Below are positions 8,263 through 37,155 of a DNA stretch of 64,000 bases, piece after piece; position 1 is the stretch's first letter, and every line of letters starts with the position of its first letter. A program made the translations under genes and the position numbers. The notes under the pieces are model-generated. The model made no database searches and had not been told where the DNA came from. It saw only the letters and a list, made by a program, of their open reading frames with translations. The DNA is from Lama guanicoe (Eukaryota), in NCBI GenBank assembly GCA_013239625.1, contig MU053629.1:1329567-1393566 (forward strand), in the 5' to 3' direction.

Positions 8263-8290
8263 NNNNNNNNNNNNNNNNNNNNNNNNNNNN
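8263..8290. other. Assembly gap (28 N) flanked by duplicated ~80-bp contig ends
   Basis: GATGCCGTTAAAAATCAT...GGGG at 8183-8262 repeated at 8291-8370. Confidence 0.95.
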
Positions 8291-10479: not shown

Positions 10480-11640
10480 TAAAAGCAGCAGACTGGCCAG
10501 GCGTGCCCCAGCTTGGCGCCCCACCCTTCTCGGGGCCGGGGGAAGCCGCGGGTGCTTGGCGCAGCGGAGTTGGGAAAGTCACTTCCGAGCGTACCCTGAC
10601 TCCGCGCCACCCGCCTGCCAGCACCGGGACCCCACCCCCGCGGGAGAGGACGGGGGCGGGGCCGAGACTGGAGGCGGGGCCTGCTCAGGGGCGGGGCGGG
10701 GCCGGCCTGGGAAGACGGAAGCCCCCAGCCTAGGGGTGGCGGCAGAACCCGGATTCCGGACTACCACGTTTTCCGGAGCCGGGCTCCTGGAGACGGCGGG
10801 CAGGAAAACCCGGCGCCCGGAAGCTTTTGCTTTCTTTGACGCAAGGGCTCGGGACGCAGCCGCCGTCGGCCGAGCGCCCGGCAAGGAGCGACCCCAGACG
10901 GAGCCTTCAGAGTCCCTCCGTCCCCCCCCCCCCGCCCCGTCCGGGAGCCTCAGTCCCTCTCGCCGCCCTCCTCGTGGCCATGGAGTGTCCGCACCTCAGC
11001 TCCAGCGTCTGCATCGCTCCGGACTCAGCCAAGTTCCCCAACGGCTCCCCGTCGTCCTGGTGCTGCAGCGGTGAGTGCGGCCCCAGGCGGCCCTGCCGCG
11101 CACCCGAGGCCCCGGCTCCGCCGGGCCTGCCGTCTAGGGGCCGCGCGGACTCGGGGAGGGGTGAGGGCGAGCCGGGCTCGGCGGCTGGGGAGGGGGGGGG
11201 CCACAGCGCGTGGGGGCGGCGGCGGGCGGGGACCCCGGCCCGCGCGGCTTGCGCCCCCGCGCCGCCTTCCAGTGCCCGGGGGCTGTGCTGGCCCGTGTCG
11301 CCGGGTCGGGGGCGGCGGGGGTGGGTGTCCTGCCCGCACAAGGCGGCCGCACGTGTGGCGGGGCTCGAGTTGCGTCTCGTCCTCGACCGCACGAGAAGAG
11401 CGCCGCTCTCGGGGCGAAGCTTTGTCTGGGCTGCGGGGCGCGCTGGGGCCCTTCGCTACCTGCCCCGGCCCCGCTTCCTTTCCCTTCCCCGCATGCTCCG
11501 GCAACCGGATCCACGCGGGGCGGGCGGGAGCCCCGAGCCCCAGGAGGTGCTCCGAACTCAGGCGGCCGAGGTCGGAGTCTTTCATCAGCTAGGGAGGGTG
11601 AAGTTTGAAAACAGGCTTCGGGCTTAAAAGCTCGGAAGGC
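10480..11640 (+). promoter_or_regulatory. USP3: CpG-island promoter / 5'UTR of USP3
   Basis: Very GC- and CpG-rich; several GGGGCGGGGC GC boxes (about 10653-10703); ETS cores (ACTTCCG about 10581, CGGAAG about 10716 and 10818); TGACGCA about 10837; no TATA. TSS not determinable from sequence, likely 10800-10900. Confidence 0.9.
10980..11070 (+). CDS. USP3: USP3 coding exon 1 (91 nt): MECPHLSSSVCIAPDSAKFPNGSPSSWCCS
   Basis: ATG in strong Kozak context (GTGGCCATGG) inside a CpG island; the peptide matches the USP3 N-terminus as I recall it; donor GCG|GTGAGT at 11071; ends in phase 1. Confidence 0.97.
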
Positions 11641-27644: not shown

Positions 27645-27963
27645 NNNNNNNNNNNNNNNNNNNNNNNNNNNNNNNNNNNNNNNNNNNNNNNNNNNNNNNN
27701 NNNNNNNNNNNNNNNNNNNNNNNNNNNNNNNNNNNNNNNNNNNNNNNNNNNNNNNNNNNNNNNNNNNNNNNNNNNNNNNNNNNNNNNNNNNNNNNNNNNN
27801 NNNNNNNNNNNNNNNNNNNNNNNNNNNNNNNNNNNNNNNNNNNNNNNNNNNNNNNNNNNNNNNNNNNNNNNNNNNNNNNNNNNNNNNNNNNNNNNNNNNN
27901 NNNNNNNNNNNNNNNNNNNNNNNNNNNNNNNNNNNNNNNNNNNNNNNNNNNNNNNNNNNNNNN
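27645..27963. other. Assembly gap (319 N)
   Basis: Run of N. Confidence 1.
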
Positions 27964-28413
27964 CTCTGAAGCATGAAATGAAGAGAAAAGGAATTCCTGC
28001 AAGTGCCAATGACACTTTTAAAAGAATCTTTATCAAGAATTTGGGAATAGTGTCTTTGAGATTTTTGAAGGTTGTTTTTACAATGTAGGCAACATTAGAA
28101 GTGTGGTTTTGCTCAAGAAAGAATTGGGTTGTCATATGGTACTAAAATCTGGGTTTAAAATATTGATGGGATAAAGAAAGAACCGTTTCAAAGGATGGTG
28201 GCAGCTTAGTTGATGATGGGCTGCCATGCTTTACTCTCGTTACCTCTGTTGCAGAGAGGATAGTCTAGACTTCAGTTTTGATTCCTGTAGGGTAGAACCT
28301 CTTGAAGGCTCTCATTCTCACTTCTACTAAACAGCAGCGTCAGTCATTCCAGCGAGTTGTTTGGCAGAGGTGAATGCTGGAAGCTCTATCACTGATGCCC
28401 CTCCTTCTCCAGG

Positions 28414-29060
28414 TGTCCTGTTATCTCTTGCTGCATAACAAACTGTCTTACACCTTAGTGACTTACAGCAACCCTTTTATTTTGCTTATGATCTTAGGAT
28501 GGGTCAGGAGTTCAGGAGGAACTTGGCTGGTGTGGTATCGGCCGGAGAACCTGAGGCTGGAGCATCCACTTCCAGGATGGCTTCTTAAGTCACATGTCTT
28601 GTGCCCCTGTGTCCTGGTCTCCATTTCTGCCCCTCTCCCTTTTCCACCTACCCCTCCCCTCCCCAGCCTCTGTGGTATCATATTCTGCAAGGTATGTGCC
28701 TGTGTGTCCTGGTCTCCGTTTCTGCCCCTCTCCCTTTCCCACCTACCCCTCCCCTCCCCAGCCTCTGTGGTATATTCTGCAAGGTCTCTCTGTGTCATTT
28801 GGTTTCTCATAGGATGTTGGTCTCAGGGTGATTAGGCGTCTCACGTGGTGGCTGGCTTTCCCAAGAGCAAGCATTCCAAGCAGTAGAAAGAAGAAGCTGT
28901 CATTTTCTGAAAACCTAGACCTGCAAACTGACACGCAGTCCCTTCAGCCATACTCAGTTGGCCAGGGCACTGACAGAGCCTGCCCAGGTTGCATGGAAGA
29001 GGACGCAGATGAGCCTCTGATGGGAGGCGTGTCAAGGACTTTGAGGTCATCTTTAATCTG
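28414..29060. mobile_element. MaLR MLT1-type LTR with an internal ~95-bp tandem duplication (28600-28784)
   Basis: TTATCTCTTGCTGCATAACAAA..CTTAGTGACTTA start and GGCTGGAGCATCCACTTCCAGGATGGCTTC motif typical of MLT1 LTRs. Confidence 0.65.
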
Positions 29061-29854
29061 TAGTAGGGCCTTTAAACAGAGAGGGGAGAATGGCTATGAG
29101 AAATCCTGAACTGTGACTTTACCAGAAAACAATTTACTCATCTAATGATTCAGGAGACATTAACATTGCTCACATTGAAGAAGAATGGGACCAAGGCAAG
29201 AGAAAACTGCCAGAGGAGGAAGGTGGAGAAGATTGCCTTTCCTACAAGATAAGCTTTATTTCACCACTGCCTTCCTGCCTTGGCCCTGGACGCTGGGCTC
29301 TGTGATCTCTGAGTCCCAGCCGGCCGCTTCTGACCGCTGTGGGTGTGGGGCTCATGCTCAGTCTCCCAGCCCTGCCTTGGCTCCCTTCCTGGGCCCTGGG
29401 CACCTCCAGTTGCTCTGTATGGGAGCTCCCTTGTTCCCCTGATCCAGACGGTCATCTTTGATCTATAGTAGGGCCTTTAAACAGAGACGAGAGAGTGTCT
29501 ATGAGAAATCCTGAACTGTGACTTTACCAGAAAACAATTTACTCATCTAATGATTCAGGAGACATTAACATTGCTCACATTGAAGAAGAATGGGACCAAG
29601 GCAAGAGAAAACTGCCAGAGGAGGAAGGTGGAGAAGATTGCCTTTCCTACAAGATAAGCTTTATTTCACCACTGCCTTCCTGCCCTGGCCCTGGATGCTG
29701 GGCTCTGTGAGCTCTGTGAGTCCCAGCCGGCTGCTTCTGACCACTGTGGGTGTGGGGCTCATGCTCAGTCTCCCAGCCCTGCCTTGGCTCCCTTCCTGGG
29801 CCCTGGGCACCTCCTGTTGCTCTGTATGGGAGCTCTCCTGTTCCCCTGATCCAG
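29045..29854. repeat. Tandem duplication, period 405 bp (29045-29447 / 29450-29854)
   Basis: GGTCATCTTT...CCCCTGATCCAG present twice with scattered substitutions; duplicated ORFs 29185 and 29590 in the ORF track. Confidence 0.97.
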
Positions 29855-30797
29855 GGAACCCAGCGCCCACTCCCAGAACGAGCAGCCTTGGGTTTGGCTG
29901 ATTGAGTGATAGGCAGTGGTTCTGGCTGCCCTCGGGCTGCTGTGGCACCTCTGGCATTGCTCAGTGTAGCTGGCTTCCCTGGACTACATTATGGCCGAGT
30001 CCCTGCTCTCTCTATGTGACGTTACCACTCTTTCCCCCTGTGATTTCAGAAGATTCAAGTTGAAGACAGCAGAGACTTCAGAATTTTCAGCATAGAACAG
30101 GCTTGTGAACATTTGGTTCAGAGCATCTGTGGTATAAAGAAGATTACATGCCTTTCTCCCAAACATTTAAAAATATGTCAGTTGGAGTGTAAGCTGGGTT
30201 ACTTCTGGAATATGTTTCTACTTACGTATGTACTGGAATATTTATAGAATTGTTACGCTAATTCTGCCCTGTCCTCTGATTTCAAGAGGGATAACTGTTT
30301 TACTACAGGTTGCTCTGTATGGGAGCTCCCTTGTTCCCCTGATCCAGGGAACCCAGTGCCCACTCCCAGAACGAGCAGCCTTGGGTTCGGGTGATTGAGC
30401 GACAGGCAGTGGTTCTGGCTGCCCTCGGGCTGCTGTGGCACTTTTGGCATTGCTCGGTGTAGCTGGCTTCCCTGTACTACGTTATGGCCGAGTCTCTGTT
30501 CTCTCTATGTGACGTTATCACTCTTCCCCACTGTGATTTCAGAAGATTCAAGTTGAAGACAGCAGAGACTTCAGGACTTTCAGCATAGAATAGGCTTGTG
30601 AACATACAATTCAAAGAGCATCTGTGGTATAAAGATTATATACCTTTTCCCAAACATTTAAAAATATGTCAGTTGGAGGGTAAGCTGGGTTACTCCTAGA
30701 ATATGTTTCTACTTACATATGTACTGAAATATTTATAGAATTTTTATGCTAATTCTGCCCTGTCCTCCAGTTTCAAGAGGAATAACCATTTTACTAC
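29816..30797. repeat. Tandem duplication, period 493 bp (29816-30306 / 30309-30797)
   Basis: GTTGCTCTGTATGGGAGC...TTTTACTAC twice, with many substitutions and small indels. Confidence 0.97.
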
Positions 30798-31021
30798 TGA
30801 TGCTTTTATGGAGAGAGAGAAAGAGAAAGAATTTTGAATAACTGCTGCAAACATTTTTTCATTGATCATGTTTTTACAAACCTGTAGAGCTGTAATCTTG
30901 GATTTTGGTGGATCTTACCACATATTTAATAATTTAGAATAAGTTTGTTTCATTAGGACAACATTTTAATACCAGTATCTTTAAATTTAAGACATTTAAA
31001 ACAATTTTTTATTATAGAAGA

Positions 31022-31891
31022 AGTAATGCTTTTTGAAAAAATTCAAACAGTATAGTTGAAAGTAGGTCCATGTGGGTCTAATCCCCATCCCATTCTTTTT
31101 TACGTGGCTGTTAGCATGTATACACCCTCCTAGACTTTAAACATTTTATATACAAGTATATAGTATACACAGAAGCACATAGTGTGGAATCTTTTTGAAG
31201 CAAAATGACAACTTTCTGGACTTACACTGCTTCGCAGCAGTCCATACCTTCAGACACCAAGTTTGAGTCCCAGTTCCGTCACTTACTAATGTATTAGCAA
31301 GGCATATAACCCCTGTGCCTCAGCTTCCTTACCTATAAAACAGACCAAATAATAGTACGCACTTGCTTGGGTTGTAGAGAGTTAAATGAAATAATAGTTA
31401 TAACAGTGTGTAGTGGTGGTTGGCACATAGTATGTACTAGATAAATACTAACCAGAGTAATGCTTTTTGAAAAAATTCAAAGTGTATAGCTGAAAGTAGG
31501 TCCATGTGGCTCTAATCCCCTGTCCCATTGTTTTTACGTGACTGGTAACAGTTACTATACACCCTCCTAGACATTAAACATTTTATATACGGATATATAA
31601 TACATATACAGAAAAACATAGCATGGAATCTTTTTAAAGCAAAAATGACAACTTTCTGGACTTACTGCTTCGCAGCAGTCCATGCCTTCAGACACCGAGT
31701 TTGAATCCCAGTTCCGTCACTTACTAATGTATTAGCAAGGCATATAACCCCTGTGCCTCAGCTTCCTTACCTATAAAACAGACCAAATAATAGTACGCAC
31801 TTCCTTGGGTTGTAGAGAGTTAAATGAAGTAATAGTTAGAACGGTGTGTAGTGGTGGTTGGCACATAGGATGTAAGAGAGAAATACTAACC
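31022..31891. repeat. Tandem duplication, period 434 bp (31022-31453 / 31456-31891), each copy carrying a MIR
   Basis: AGTAATGCTTTTTGAAAAAATTC...AAATACTAACC twice; MIR core CTGTGCCTCAGCTTCCTTACCTATAAAA in both. Confidence 0.97.
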
Positions 31892-32167
31892 TTTAAAACA
31901 AACTCATGTTACGGATGTTTTCTTAAGAGTTGCTGATCTTTTCGAGTGTTGCACTTTAAAACATTCTCTGTGTTGCGGGTTGGGTAGTGTTCTGAGCCTT
32001 ACTGTTGTAGCAGCATGTCTGTACTGGGTTTGTACAGCGGTTCCACACGCTTCCCACCCTCGCTGTTGCAGTGAGTTGCTGTTTCTGATGGGCAATGAGA
32101 TGGGGATGTGTTTGCCTTTAGATTATACTGATTAGCAATTAATCTTTTTGCTAAGCCTTGAAAGAAA

Positions 32168-32184
32168 NNNNNNNNNNNNNNNNN
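32168..32184. other. Assembly gap (17 N)
   Basis: Run of N. Confidence 1.
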
Positions 32185-33509
32185 ATGCACTATAAGTGGC
32201 TTGCCTGTCAGTGCTGTGTGCTTGAACTGTTTTTCTGTAGAGACAGTGACTAAGTTGTGTCATAAGCACTAGTGCGTGGTGTTTTACAAAAAAAAATTCA
32301 GAATTCCAGGAGAATTGTTGATGGGCTTTGACTATCACATGTATTCTGTATTATTTGGTTCTGTGTAGTGAATACTAAGGATATTGAAGACCAGTGGTTA
32401 TGTGGGGGGAACATTACACTCAGTGAGGGTGCCGCTTCATCTTGTGAACACCACTCGAAAACGTTCGTGGCTAAATAGGCCCCTTTCAGCACGGAGTTCC
32501 CTGGTTTTCTGCCCTTCTCTATCTCTTGATGAAGAAGCAGACTGCTGTTCTCTGGAATGTAGATCACTTGGTTGCCTTCCCTCTGCCTCTGTGCCCTGTC
32601 AGTTCTCACCCCCAGGTTTCCGGGAGAGTTAAAGCTTGGGGGGGGTGCGGGGGGCTTTAGGAAAAGGACATGAGTGTGAGCGTGTTTTGCAGGCTGGGCT
32701 CCTGCTCCTTTGTGGGGAATGGCCCTCGCTCAGGAGAGGATCAGACTCTCCACTCCCTCCCAAGGGGCGCTGCCGCCCACTTGCAGGGCTTGTGAAGAGG
32801 AGGGGAGGAGAGCAGGGCTGGGGAGGCTCCTGAGGCTGAGGCTGCAGCAGGAGGAGGGGAGATGAGGGAGCTCGACAGCACCAGCCTCCCAGGCTGTGAG
32901 GCCCTGGGGGCTGAGAAGGGAGACACCCAGCTGGGGTTGGAAGAATCTAAGTATATGGGAGAGATGGCTGGAGGAGAGTAACTTTGAGGACGTTGTATAA
33001 TCTGAGCGAAAGAAGACAAGACTGTTTATGAGATCCAGAACCCTGCTATGGCCACATGTAACTTGGGTAACTTGGGAGAAATACACTGCATGGCTTCCTG
33101 GCCTTGACGTCACCTTGAAGTGTAATTAGGCATAATAAAAAGAGCCTTTATAAGTTTTCAGACTTACCTTTTTGAACTTCTACAAGGTTCCATCCTTTTT
33201 ATCCTCTTTCTCTCATGTACCAGCATTTAAGATTAAAACAATAAAAAGCTTCAGTTTAATATTTTTATGTTTTGCTGAATAGATAGTATATTTATAACTT
33301 AAAAACATTTTATTGCCTATGGTTTTATTATATACACACACATGCACACACAATATAATATTTCAGTTATGCTATGATTCTTGTAGTGTTTTATAGAAGA
33401 GCCTGGAAAATTCTAAGGCAGTTTCCATAGGAAATGTGTTCATTCTACAGATAAACTTGGAACTTGTCTGCCTATAAATTGAGACTACCTTTTATACTAA
33501 AATATTTCC

Positions 33510-33775
33510 TCTGGCTCCAAGTCTGGCAACACGGCCTCCCTGACCGTCTCTGGGCTCTGGTCTGAGGGCGAGGCTGATTATTACTGCGCCTCATATAGAA
33601 GCGGTGGCCCTTTTGCGCAGTGGTCCTAGTTCATGGGGAGGTGAGACCAAAACCCACCCTGAGCTCACTCAGCTCTTCTCTCCCAAACTCAGGCTTTCAT
33701 ATTTTTCTTATTAGTTTGTTCTGAAGTAATTAGAAAATTAAATAAAAATTTAAAGATTTCATGAAGGAAAAAAAA
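33510..33775 (+). pseudogene. 5'-truncated processed orphon fragment of an unrearranged immunoglobulin lambda variable gene (IGLV2-like FR3-CDR3 + RSS + 3' flank + A-tail)
   Basis: 33510-33614 translates [35 protein letters not shown] (V-lambda FR3 with YYC); RSS follows directly; AATAAA 33741-33746; A8 at 33768-33775; flanking direct repeats AAAATATTTCC (33499-33509) and AAGATATTTCC (33774-33784). Confidence 0.93.
33616..33654 (+). other. 23-bp-spacer recombination signal sequence (degenerate heptamer)
   Basis: Heptamer CGCAGTG (consensus CACAGTG) 33616-33622, exactly 23-nt spacer GTCCTAGTTCATGGGGAGGTGAG, nonamer ACCAAAACC 33646-33654 (consensus ACAAAAACC); V-lambda genes use 23-RSS. Confidence 0.92.
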
Positions 33776-34306
33776 GATATTTCCCGCTAAGGTGATTAAA
33801 ATAAATGATTTTAAGATTATTTGTAGTATTCTTTTATTCATGCTATGCTCTGTTCTATCCTTAGTTTTTCGAGATTTTAAAGTAAAAAGATAAATTTAAG
33901 AATTGAGGGTTTAAAGCCAATATTTTTCATTCTGTTCTTGGGCACATCTCTGGCTAAGGTGTGTGTACACAGAGTGAAAATTCTCCAAAGCAATGTAACG
34001 AAGGGCTTCCGAATGCCCCCTAATACCCATTGCTGTAGCTTCCTGGCCTTCAAGTGTTTCTGGTGGGAAAGTATGAAGCTCTCAGAGAGTGCTGTCATTT
34101 AAATAGCCAAAGTCAGTTGTCCTAACACACGTCGTCTTAGTTTTCTTTCTGTAAATATTTGTGATAGAAGAAAACGGGTTCCTTAACTCAGAAAGTGAGG
34201 CCTTTTTTGAGATTTGGTAAAAGGCACACTTATTTCCAATGTTCTGGAAAGTCAGTACTATTTTATTTCCTTTTATTCTTTGTCCTCATCCCTGTCTTAA
34301 GTGCCT

Positions 34307-34495
34307 ATTTATTTATTTATTTGAAATGCAATTCACATAATATAAAATTAACCATTTTAAGGTGAACGGTTTGATTCAGTGCATTTAATACATCTCCACC
34401 TACCACCTGTCTTGTTCCCAGATATTTTCATCACCCCAAAATAAACCCCATACCTGTTAAGCAGTTGCTCCCCATTCTTTCCTCCCCTCAGCCTT
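34307..34495 (-). mobile_element. L1 (L1MA/MB-like) 3' end fragment
   Basis: (TTTA)n tail then CAATTCACATAATATAAAATTAACCATTTTAAGG..CATCACCCCAAAA, typical reverse-strand L1M 3'UTR. Confidence 0.65.
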
Positions 34496-35260
34496 AGGGT
34501 ACCTTTTTTAAAATTTGAAATTGAGAAATTAAAAAAATTAATGAAACTTTGTGTTATAATTGATGTAAGGCTAGATTTAGTCTGTTCTAATGGTTGTAAA
34601 ATTAGATCACAAAACTGTATATAATTTGTGTATATTTATAACCATAAGGGGGAAAAGGAATACTTGGTAGGAAACACACCAAAGTAACAGTGATTTTGCT
34701 CTAGATTTTCTTTTCTTCATTTAAAGGAGGGGGAAAAAATCTTCCCATAATTACACAACAAAACAAAAATAAAAACATATTTAAAAGCTTGGGCCTAAAC
34801 TTACTATTATTATAACATAATTATTTCAGGATAATATTAAACTTCTTTTGGGTTGAGTACAATTTTATTTTTAGTATTTTTTGAAAGAAAAATATTTGCT
34901 GGAGGAACAGAACTACATAATATTTGTAGTTTTTCAACCCTCCAGATTATCTCAGATCATGAATTGTTGTTTCAAGTAAGCTGTGTTCTAATTTATTTTT
35001 CACTTAAAAATGAATTTCATGGGACTTTGTTTTCAAACTATAAAAACATCATATTCTTGTTGATAGAAATTAAATACCACAGGGGTATACAAATAAAAAG
35101 CTACCAGTCTCCCTTCACAATAGTCTTCTTTTGTATCTGCTTAAAATAATTGTTAGCAGTTTGGCAGTCTTATTAGCCTTTGTCATGTGGCTTACACGCA
35201 CATATAATAAAATCGGACCTAACTGAGTGAAAATCTCAAAATGCCTTTAGGGTGGCCCCA

Positions 35261-35282
<22 letters not shown>

Positions 35283-35291
<9 letters not shown>

Positions 35292-35375
35292 TTTTAATGG
35301 AGTTACTGGGGATTGAACCCAGGACCTCAGGTATGCTTGGCATGCACTGTACCACTGAGCAGTCCTCCCCACCTC
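35283..35375 (-). mobile_element. tRNA-derived camelid-type SINE, with adjacent (TC)n at 35261-35282
   Basis: Reverse strand reads GCTCAGTGGTACAGTGCATGCC...GAGGTCCTGGGTTCAATCCCCAGTAACTCCATT-A(n): pol III A and B boxes plus A tail. Confidence 0.85.
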
Positions 35376-37094
35376 CCAACCCTGACTCCCAGCCTCCCTC
35401 CACTCCCCCTTTCTATCAGTTAATGTAAATGTGTGAATGCACCCGGGAAAGGCAAGGCCCCAGGCTAACTGCAGGGGGAATCTTACCACGGAAAGCTTTC
35501 TTATTGAAAAATAGTTAGTGCCCTGTTCTGGCCAGACAGGCAGTGCATCACTGCACTCTCCTAGCCTTCCTTGCCCTCTCCTTCCTCTCAAGCATAGAAT
35601 GAATGTATGTCAAAAATTGATTCGTCTCCTTAATGAGGGAACCAGCAGGATGGTAAAGCTGATTCCAAGAGCGTTTGAGAAATCAAGTGTATGCAGACAC
35701 TGAAGAATGAATGTTGAAATAAATTGCTAGACTAAATAAGTTGCTAGACTAGATACAAAATTGGTTAACGTCCTGCAGGTAGTAAAACCATAACCTTTGG
35801 AGTCTGCTGGACAGAAATTATCTCTACCAAATAAAATATACAAGTTTACCTGTAACGTTATGGAATTTGGGTCCTAATCAGTAGTAAACAGCAGGCCAAA
35901 CAATGGTATTTTAACTAAATAATCTTTGGGATATTTATTGTACAGTATGTTTCATTACACACTGAAAGTGCTTGTAGTTCTTGATTCACTTTTTTTCCAG
36001 GTTTGGCTGATTTTTCTTAACAATGAGATGTGTGATTAAGCAAGACCAATATAGTGTAGATCAGATCTTGGAAGAGCTTGGTATCTTAAAGTAAGGAATT
36101 TAAACCTCCATTCAACAACTGTTTATTGAGCACATACTGTGTGCCCGGCAGTGGACTTGTCGTAGTCCCGAGTGTGTGACTGTGCTTTGGTGCCCCTCCC
36201 GTGCCCCTAGGAGGCCCACTGGTGGTTCTCAAGTGGTTGCATTAGGGTGTCACCTGGGAAGTTGCTTTTCTCAGAATAGACATGTCCTTTGTCCTTCTGT
36301 CCCAACCTCAATGTAGATGTCCCTGCTTGAGTAGAGCATATGTGTTTAGAAAAAGCTTTACAGGTGATTTTTATATCCCTTTCCTTTAAAAAAATATTGT
36401 TGTGTTTATTGGGCTTTCGTTAAAAGGAATCGAATGAGTAAACAGCAAGCGAAATTGCAATCAATATTTTTAAAAGTTTCCATACCCCTTCTTGGCTGCC
36501 CCATCTCTATAATAAAACTAAAATATTGTCCTGATTATACCCTCAGCAAGAACTACATGCCATTGTCATATTAGAATTACATTTAATCCAACTCAGACAT
36601 TAATTTGGGAAGAACTGGGCTTAGTCTTCTAATTGTATCCTTAAGTTATGCCTCTCGCTGAAGAAACTGAAAGAGTTGTCATTTGTTTGTAGAAGTATAT
36701 GATCTGCATGGCAAAGACGTGATTGAAAAATTAGACTTTAAAATGTTTTTAATGAGGAAAAAAGACTGTCATTAACTTATTGGAGACTGTGGTAAAAGGG
36801 AATAAGTAATAGAGGAGAAAAGTGTATATGTGTTTAACTTGTGGTGAAACTATTTAAGTCAACAATTAAAATGAGCAGCTGTTGTGGACATGAGTTTAAA
36901 TTCTCTTTGGTTTAACTTTAATTCGGCAGCCACTTTGTGTAAATGCACTCACACAGCAGGGATTTGTGATTTCACTACGCCTCAGCAGCCATGGAATTTA
37001 TAACTTAATCACAGGATGTGATATTACAGATTAGTGGAGAAACTGGGAAATAACATGATACAATTGGTATATTGTGTATTTTTCTTTTTATTAG

Positions 37095-37155
37095 TGTGCC
37101 GGTCCAACAAAAGCCCCTGGGTCTGTCTGACTTGTTCAAGTGTCCACTGTGGAAG
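37095..37155 (+). CDS. USP3: USP3 coding exon 2 (61 nt): VCRSNKSPWVCLTCSSVHCGR, ZnF-UBP part
   Basis: Acceptor tttctttttattag|, donor AAG|GTAGGT; frame continues from exon 1; W-x-C-L-x-C-x3-H-C-G-R motif of ZnF-UBP domains. Confidence 0.97.

Follow-up and report, generated by a model that had tools for sequence, protein, structure and literature searches.

The insert and its position in USP3

The window analysed here is a 64,000 nt stretch of Lama guanicoe DNA (assembly GCA_013239625.1, contig MU053629.1, positions 1,329,567 to 1,393,566 of the forward strand); unless a contig is named, coordinates are positions in this window. It contains two coding exons of USP3 and, between them, an insert derived from an unrearranged immunoglobulin lambda variable gene (IGLV) which carries that gene's recombination signal sequence (RSS), ends in a run of A and has the appearance of a retrocopy. 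The insert comprises 258 nt (33510–33767) plus the tail and lies in the sense orientation to USP3. It was also found in a diverged paralog of this part of USP3 (contig C5553) and, in part, on a small contig (C35253), both of which are described below. The features identified were as follows.

33499–33509, + strand: left target-site duplication, AAAATATTTCC (direct reading; compared with the allele and the paralog; chance estimate made)
33510–33614, + strand: 5′-truncated IGLV V-exon fragment of 35 codons, stop-free, covering framework region 3 (FR3) and the germline complementarity-determining region 3 (CDR3) (PDB search; germline alignment)
33616–33654, + strand: 23-RSS, consisting of the heptamer CGCAGTG (33616–33622), a 23 nt spacer (33623–33645) and the nonamer ACCAAAACC (33646–33654) (germline RSS alignment)
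33655–33767, + strand: germline IGLV 3′ flank, 113 nt (homology to germline genes stops at 33766)
33737–33742 and 33741–33746, + strand: overlapping poly(A) signals ATTAAA and AATAAA, respectively, in the window and in the paralog
33768–33775, + strand: A8, remnant of a poly(A) tail, 21 nt past AATAAA (germline genes are AACCCCTG-like at this place)
33774–33784, + strand: right target-site duplication, AAGATATTTCC (direct reading)
10980–11070, + strand: coding part of USP3 exon 1 (MECPHLSS...WCCS), followed by a GTGAGT donor (protein-level identity)
37095–37155, + strand: USP3 exon 2, start of the zf-UBP finger, with an AG acceptor and a GTAGGT donor

A PDB sequence search with the 35-residue translation of 33510–33614 returned lambda light chains, aligned over their residues 65–99 (E 1.9e-16 to about 1e-10), and these included IGLV2-14, the lambda V-II protein MCG and a llama Fab light chain. 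The 35-residue fragment alone was not recognised by Pfam, and Rfam gave nothing over 31000–36500 at E up to 0.1. A single base separates the end of the V fragment (33614) from the first base of the heptamer (33616). The initial annotation of this DNA, made from the letters alone, had described 105 nt (35 residues) of V-lambda FR3 and CDR3, a 23-RSS in the place of a J segment, about 110 nt of flank with AATAAA and an A8 21 nt later, and 11 bp direct repeats on both sides. All of these were located: the V fragment is stop-free and aligns to lambda light chains, CGCAGTG, 23 nt and the nonamer follow directly after it, the flank measures 113 nt with the signal and A8 present in the sequence, and the two repeats, at 33499–33509 and 33774–33784, agree at 10 of 11 positions. 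An 11-mer repeat matching at least 10/11 at exactly this spacing occurred at three of 62,980 window positions, and with a slack of ±5 nt on both sides the same criterion returned 37 of 19,619 sampled positions. Searching the window for other parts of a V gene, or for more distal V flank, found none (best E 0.009 over 25 nt).

The open reading frame (ORF) of exon 1 sits in a CpG-rich stretch at 10–12 kb. In a comparison with a 40-residue query, of which 30 residues are exon, all 30 exon residues were identical to the ubiquitin carboxyl-terminal hydrolase 3 proteins of many mammals. The identity of USP3 was based on this protein comparison and not on the PDB search with exon 2, which alone gave only weak zf-UBP matches, to HDAC6 and USP49 (E ~0.06). 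As the insert lies between exon 1 and exon 2 on the same strand as both, it is located in USP3 intron 1, sense strand. The position given by the initial annotation is thus borne out, with the identity of exon 1 on one side and, on the other, a next coding exon with its splice signals.

The window contains three assembly gaps (N runs), at 8263–8290, 27645–27963 and 32168–32184, the last of which is 1.3 kb upstream of the insert. Twenty of the 24 public sequencing runs listed (5 organism labels, 9 studies) contained 0.51–0.64 of the sampled words of 32200–35200, a figure that describes the surrounding 3 kb and is not proof of the insert.

Germline IGLV genes and the limits of homology

A search of the window's own assembly (2.05 Gb, 55,231 contigs) with 33499–33790 yielded 37 matches. 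Beyond the insert's own copies, these were located either on contigs rich in V hits (C5414, C1705, C8178, C697, C6125 and C7253) or on tiny contigs. Locus L004 of contig C5414 represents a lambda V gene in complete germline form, with the octamer ATTTGCAT, a leader, an intron, a V exon and a canonical signal (CACAGTG-23-ACCAAAACC). Its V exon matched Pfam V-set (E 1.6e-17) and lambda chains in the PDB. As L004 is complete and unrearranged, the source family is real and unrearranged. The V genes of this cluster are 3–5 kb apart and in the same orientation. A retroviral envelope fragment (TLV_coat, E 5.3e-6) was also found between lambda V genes of this IGL-like contig, at L047:725–985 (C5414:80725–80985).

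The limits of homology were compared for nine germline IGLV loci found in this genome, and seven of the germline genes were included in a multiple alignment. The match started at 33507–33509 in all nine loci. It ended at 33766 in five, at 33765 in one and at 33753–33757 in two; the remaining locus was cut by the end of its contig. At the 5′ junction there is a microhomology of one base (C) that is common to the target and the V gene. At the 3′ junction the A run was absent from all seven aligned germline genes, which read CATGAAGAAC... at this place, whereas the window reads CATGAAGG and then A8 and the second 11-mer. Past CATGAAG, all seven germline genes run on as AACCCC- or AACTCC-like DNA.

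Between these limits the V part of the insert was identical to the germline IGLVs at 82–95 of 105 nt, and the RSS was identical to the germline RSSs at 30–34 of 39 nt; the heptamer is CACAGTG in all germline relatives. The V part was closest to L012 and L014 (95/105 nt, 90%), the flanks of which are unrelated to that of the insert beyond ~15 nt past the nonamer. In its flank the insert belongs with the L004–L011 type, at an identity of 60–67% with gaps counted. A search with 33623–33767 (RSS spacer, nonamer and flank) returned 12 matches, of which the best outside the insert's own copies was to L006, at 80% (BLAST). We also observed that the CDR3 end of the insert (33591–33614, GGTGGC...) resembles L012, L014, L015 and L017, and its 3′ flank the L004–L011 type; on these resemblances the parent gene may have been a mosaic, or a lineage intermediate between the two flank types.

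In a maximum-likelihood tree the two insert copies, from the window and from the paralog, formed a pair with 99/98 support, the stem of which measured ~0.1 substitutions per site; this pair attached weakly (84/76) to the group of L012, L014, L015 and L017. The tree mixes rows with and without flank homology and was used only to call the parent a separate lineage of the subgroup. The parent would accordingly be placed, from these alignments, as a separate member of an IGLV2-like subgroup that is now lost or unassembled.

An allelic contig and a paralogous copy of the insert

Contig C35253 (L002, 280 bp) aligned with 33481–33760 of the window with four differences, all within its first 88 nt, and it had the state of the paralog at all four. 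C35253 is most simply seen as the other allele or haplotype, a view suggested by this alignment. The four derived changes on the window haplotype fall within 76 nt and form a dense cluster. The left repeat of C35253 is AAGATATTTCC, identical at 11/11 positions to the right repeat of the window; in the paralog both repeats are AAGATACTTCC (11/11). The insertion site, with the slash marking the nick, reads AT/AAGA in C35253 and in the paralog and CT/AAAA in the window haplotype. As C35253 and the paralog agree, AT/AAGA was the ancestral target and CT/AAAA is a derived state of the window haplotype. The initial annotation had placed the insertion at CT/AAAA; this is what the window reads, but it is not what the insertion met.

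The same comparison bears on the RSS. The paralog retains CACAGTG, so the signal was canonical at insertion and the CGC of the window heptamer is a later change on the window lineage. Where the window peptide has an odd tryptophan codon, TGG, the paralog reads CGG and every germline gene CAG.

Contig C5553 (101.9 kb) matched the window and its continuation over ~57 kb, with 18487–75265 corresponding to C5553:9707–67007 (onward to C1293:1404831). The substitution divergence between window and C5553 was 6.9% (Kimura two-parameter distance 0.073) over 53,952 aligned nt; the BLAST identity of ~90% includes gaps. The match has sharp boundaries on both sides. It covers a portion of intron 1, exon 2 and the sequence beyond, but neither exon 1 nor the promoter. 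Exon 2 of C5553 has four changes, among them R>Q, N>H and a Cys>Gly in the WVCLTC motif of the finger, and from its sequence the segment on C5553 is probably a dead partial copy of USP3. The DNA adjoining this copy (C5553:70001–76000, L038:1–6000) is paralogous over its full length to C1232 (92%) and C5183 (83%), and it matches C7703 and C4240 (82–86%) in two pieces. Taken together, these features suggest that a piece of USP3 was transposed duplicatively into DNA that is itself a mosaic of segmental duplications.

C5553 also contains the V-RSS insert, and both junctions are the same as in the window. The equivalent of the A run is AACAAAAA there, and the poly(A) signal likewise stands 21 nt before the tail. 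Between the paralogs the insert differs at 17 of 258 nt (6.6%), like its flanks. As this matches the 6.9% of the flanks, the insertion predates the duplication. Neutral rates in mammals are 1–2.2e-9 per site per year, and at such rates the duplication would be roughly 17–37 million years old, and the insertion older. The insert is ancient, decayed and without evident function.

Two further observations were made in this part of the intron. Staggered, overlapping BLAST matches between 28695–31460 of the window and C5553:19579–21464 suggest a tandemly repeated block, the copy number of which apparently differs between the paralogs. Additionally, the GC content of 28001–30000 is ~0.50, above that of the neighbouring intron windows.

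Origin of the insert

We read the insert as an L1-type, 5′-truncated retrocopy of an RNA that read through an unrearranged IGLV, and consider this about 85% probable. Homology to the germline genes ends at an A run which those genes lack, a poly(A) signal stands 21 nt upstream of the run, and the target is duplicated; this combination is what target-primed reverse transcription leaves behind when the template is a polyadenylated RNA. The L1-type retrotransposition with 5′ truncation, A tail and target-site duplication that the initial annotation had proposed is therefore supported by the limits of homology, by germline genes without the A run and by the 11 bp repeats. Its proposal that the template was in germline configuration also agrees with the alignments, in which V passes into CDR3 and then into heptamer, 23 nt and nonamer with no J, and in which the germline loci match through the RSS and the flank. 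What the sequences show directly is the anatomy, the limits of homology, germline genes without the A run, and the insert in two diverged paralogs and an allele; that an RNA served as intermediate, that L1 enzymes copied it and where it came from are inferences.

The events may be pictured as follows. A polyadenylated RNA would have crossed an unrearranged lambda V segment, its 23-RSS and ~110 nt of 3′ flank. By target-primed reverse transcription, the L1 machinery would have copied this RNA at a nicked AT/AAGA in USP3 intron 1. The copying, or its resolution, would then have halted within FR3, so that the last 258 nt and the tail were inserted, with the 11 bp target-site duplications forming around them and the copy lying in the orientation of USP3. 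The ~57 kb duplicative transposition would later have carried the insert along, and the copy would have decayed, the heptamer changing to CGC and CAG to TGG.

Several points weigh against this reading. The assembly holds no near-identical parent, the best germline match being 81% overall. The initial annotation had expected an IGLV that matches through the RSS and the flank up to the poly(A) point without an A run, and this was found for the gene family (five of nine loci end at 33766, and all seven aligned genes lack the A run) but not for a specific parent. Neither AATAAA nor ATTAAA occurs at the homologous place in any of the seven germline relatives, three of which have AATGAA; that the parent had a poly(A) signal is suggested by the two insert copies, which share AATAAA and ATTAAA. 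The target is an imperfect L1 site, a point that counts on both sides: the consensus of the L1 endonuclease is of the TT/AAGA or TT/AAAA type, and the ancestral AT/AAGA is one base off it. The tail consists of eight A only. The truncation in FR3 removes the only intron (that of the leader), the loss of which would be the classical proof of an RNA origin, and no empty site was seen within this one genome. Finally, the repeat position 33505/33780 is T in both window copies and C in both paralog copies, a pattern that needs two parallel changes (~5% by chance, by our own rough estimate) or a short conversion between the repeats.

The template RNA

The template RNA could have begun at the promoter of the V gene itself or further upstream, and the severely 5′-truncated anatomy of the insert fits a sterile transcript and an upstream read-through alike. 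The odds are about even, and tip slightly toward a sterile transcript begun at the V promoter.

Germline transcripts of heavy-chain V genes (VH), as a passage of PMC2190842 describes them for cells of the B lineage, start at the V promoter, have the leader intron spliced, run through the RSS and are cleaved and polyadenylated downstream. By analogy, the insert resembles the 3′ end of what would be the lambda equivalent of such a sterile VH transcript. It may be the fossil 3′ end of a sterile transcript from a lambda V promoter and the first processed immunoglobulin V pseudogene of its kind; in that case, germ cells or the early embryo of an ancestor would have transcribed and polyadenylated an unrearranged IGLV. 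We hold this full statement to be rather less likely than not. Were the RNA of V-promoter origin, the copy would record sterile V transcription in cells contributing to the germ line and fix the 3′ end of such a transcript.

Alternatively, the same retrotransposition may have used a read-through RNA that began upstream, either in an L1 (an orphan 3′ transduction with extreme 5′ truncation) or at an intergenic promoter or that of a neighbouring V gene, and that was polyadenylated past the RSS. We regard this as possible but somewhat doubtful. With V genes so close together and in one orientation, read-through from upstream is conceivable. A heritable insertion also needs expression in the germ line or early embryo, where V promoters are not known to be active. 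Germline L1 transductions, orphan transductions among them, are documented (e.g. PMC4862182). Against an upstream start stands the fact that sterile V transcripts of exactly this 3′ structure are known, as the passage of PMC2190842 has it. Additionally, the 104 ORFs of at least 70 aa in C5414:80001–100000, which includes ~12 kb upstream of L004, contained no reverse-transcriptase or endonuclease domain and only the envelope fragment and a V-set exon, a weak negative, since the parent is a gene other than L004 and such a search would overlook L1s that have decayed.

Explanations without an RNA intermediate

A copy made at the DNA level, by an orphon-type duplication or by the use of IGL DNA as filler in the repair of a double-strand break, is improbable. 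It would accord with human data, where, in the parts of PMC7555362 used here, most V genes outside the immunoglobulin loci are orphons and the only processed immunoglobulin genes there are IGHEP2 and IGLJ-C/OR18, and the insert, truncated downstream of the leader intron, shows no intron loss. A filler or segmental copy, however, predicts no such trio as an A run lacking in seven of seven germline genes, AATAAA 21 nt before it and an 11 bp target duplication. An immunoglobulin V orphon was likewise rejected: homology is confined to 33507–33766, without promoter, leader or long flanks, and an A tail and target-site duplications are present.

The possibility that IGL reads were misjoined into the USP3 intron by the assembler can be practically dismissed. 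Assembler trouble is indeed indicated by two very small redundant contigs, of 280 bp and 394 bp, that overlap the insert. Both junctions nevertheless recur in a second locus that is ~7% diverged over 53,952 nt, and the left junction also recurs in the allelic contig, with four differences. An assembly error cannot be common to independent copies that have diverged, and misassembly, which the initial annotation had named as a way for its reading to fail, is therefore excluded. Transposition by RAG of an excised signal-end fragment, which would account for a recombination signal outside an antigen-receptor locus, is about as remote and was rejected, as the V coding end was never cut and remains attached to the heptamer, there is one internal RSS and not two terminal ones, an A tail is present, and the target duplication is 11 bp, compared with about 5 bp in RAG transposition.

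Significance and comparison with known systems

The mechanism, on the retrocopy reading, is ordinary L1 retroposition; it is the template that is unusual, and the insert represents a rare type of processed immunoglobulin pseudogene. A literature search of limited scope, at the level of titles, found no description of a retroposed unrearranged V gene with its RSS. As it is older than the ~57 kb USP3 segmental duplication, the insert is a dated marker that helps to order events in this lineage. It also seeded an antigen-receptor recombination signal, of consensus form at the time, into an intron of a broadly expressed housekeeping gene. Nothing suggests a present function, and judging from its sequence the paralog's CACAGTG-23-ACCAAAACC could be a cryptic RAG target in lymphocytes.

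Among known systems, L1 processed pseudogenes and 5′-truncated retrocopies share with the insert the poly(A) signal, an A tail absent from the source, an 11 bp target-site duplication, an A-rich nick site, 5′ truncation and microhomology at the 5′ junction. Unlike them, the insert would derive from an RNA over an unrearranged V gene and not from a conventional spliced mRNA, and it carries a 23-RSS and intergenic flank.

Orphan L1 3′ transductions are similar in that they lack L1 sequence and consist of a short stretch of unique DNA, followed by a poly(A) tail and set between target-site duplications. They differ in requiring a source L1 upstream of the transduced DNA.

Human immunoglobulin V orphons also place a V gene and its RSS outside the functional locus, where they are unable to contribute to antibodies. 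Orphons are DNA-level duplications that bring promoter, leader and long flanks, in contrast to the 258 nt, A-tailed and set between target duplications, that are found here. In the passages of PMC7555362 drawn on here, they are listed for IGHV on chromosomes 15 and 16, for IGKV on several chromosomes and for IGLV at 8q and 22q.

The same passages give IGHEP2 (chromosome 9) as the only processed immunoglobulin gene of the major loci and, with IGLJ-C/OR18 (chromosome 18), as one of the only two known in human. Like the insert, these two are transcripts of an immunoglobulin locus retroposed to another chromosome region. They stem from C-containing transcripts (C-epsilon or spliced J-C) and have no RSS, whereas the insert holds a V gene in germline configuration and neither J nor C. 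IGLJ-C/OR18 was reportedly described by Hollis et al. in 1982.

Sterile VH transcripts, as far as the passage of PMC2190842 goes, have a 3′ end to which the insert would correspond; they are VH transcripts of B-lineage cells, and a heritable retrocopy needs an RNA of the germ line or early embryo. A further parallel is the Vmu-j of the marsupial TCR-mu locus, a joined antigen-receptor V that the relevant passage of PMC7615758 attributes ‘most likely’ to retrotransposition. Vmu-j came from a rearranged, joined transcript, has lost its RSS and functions in a receptor locus; the insert in USP3 intron 1 is unrearranged, truncated and inert.

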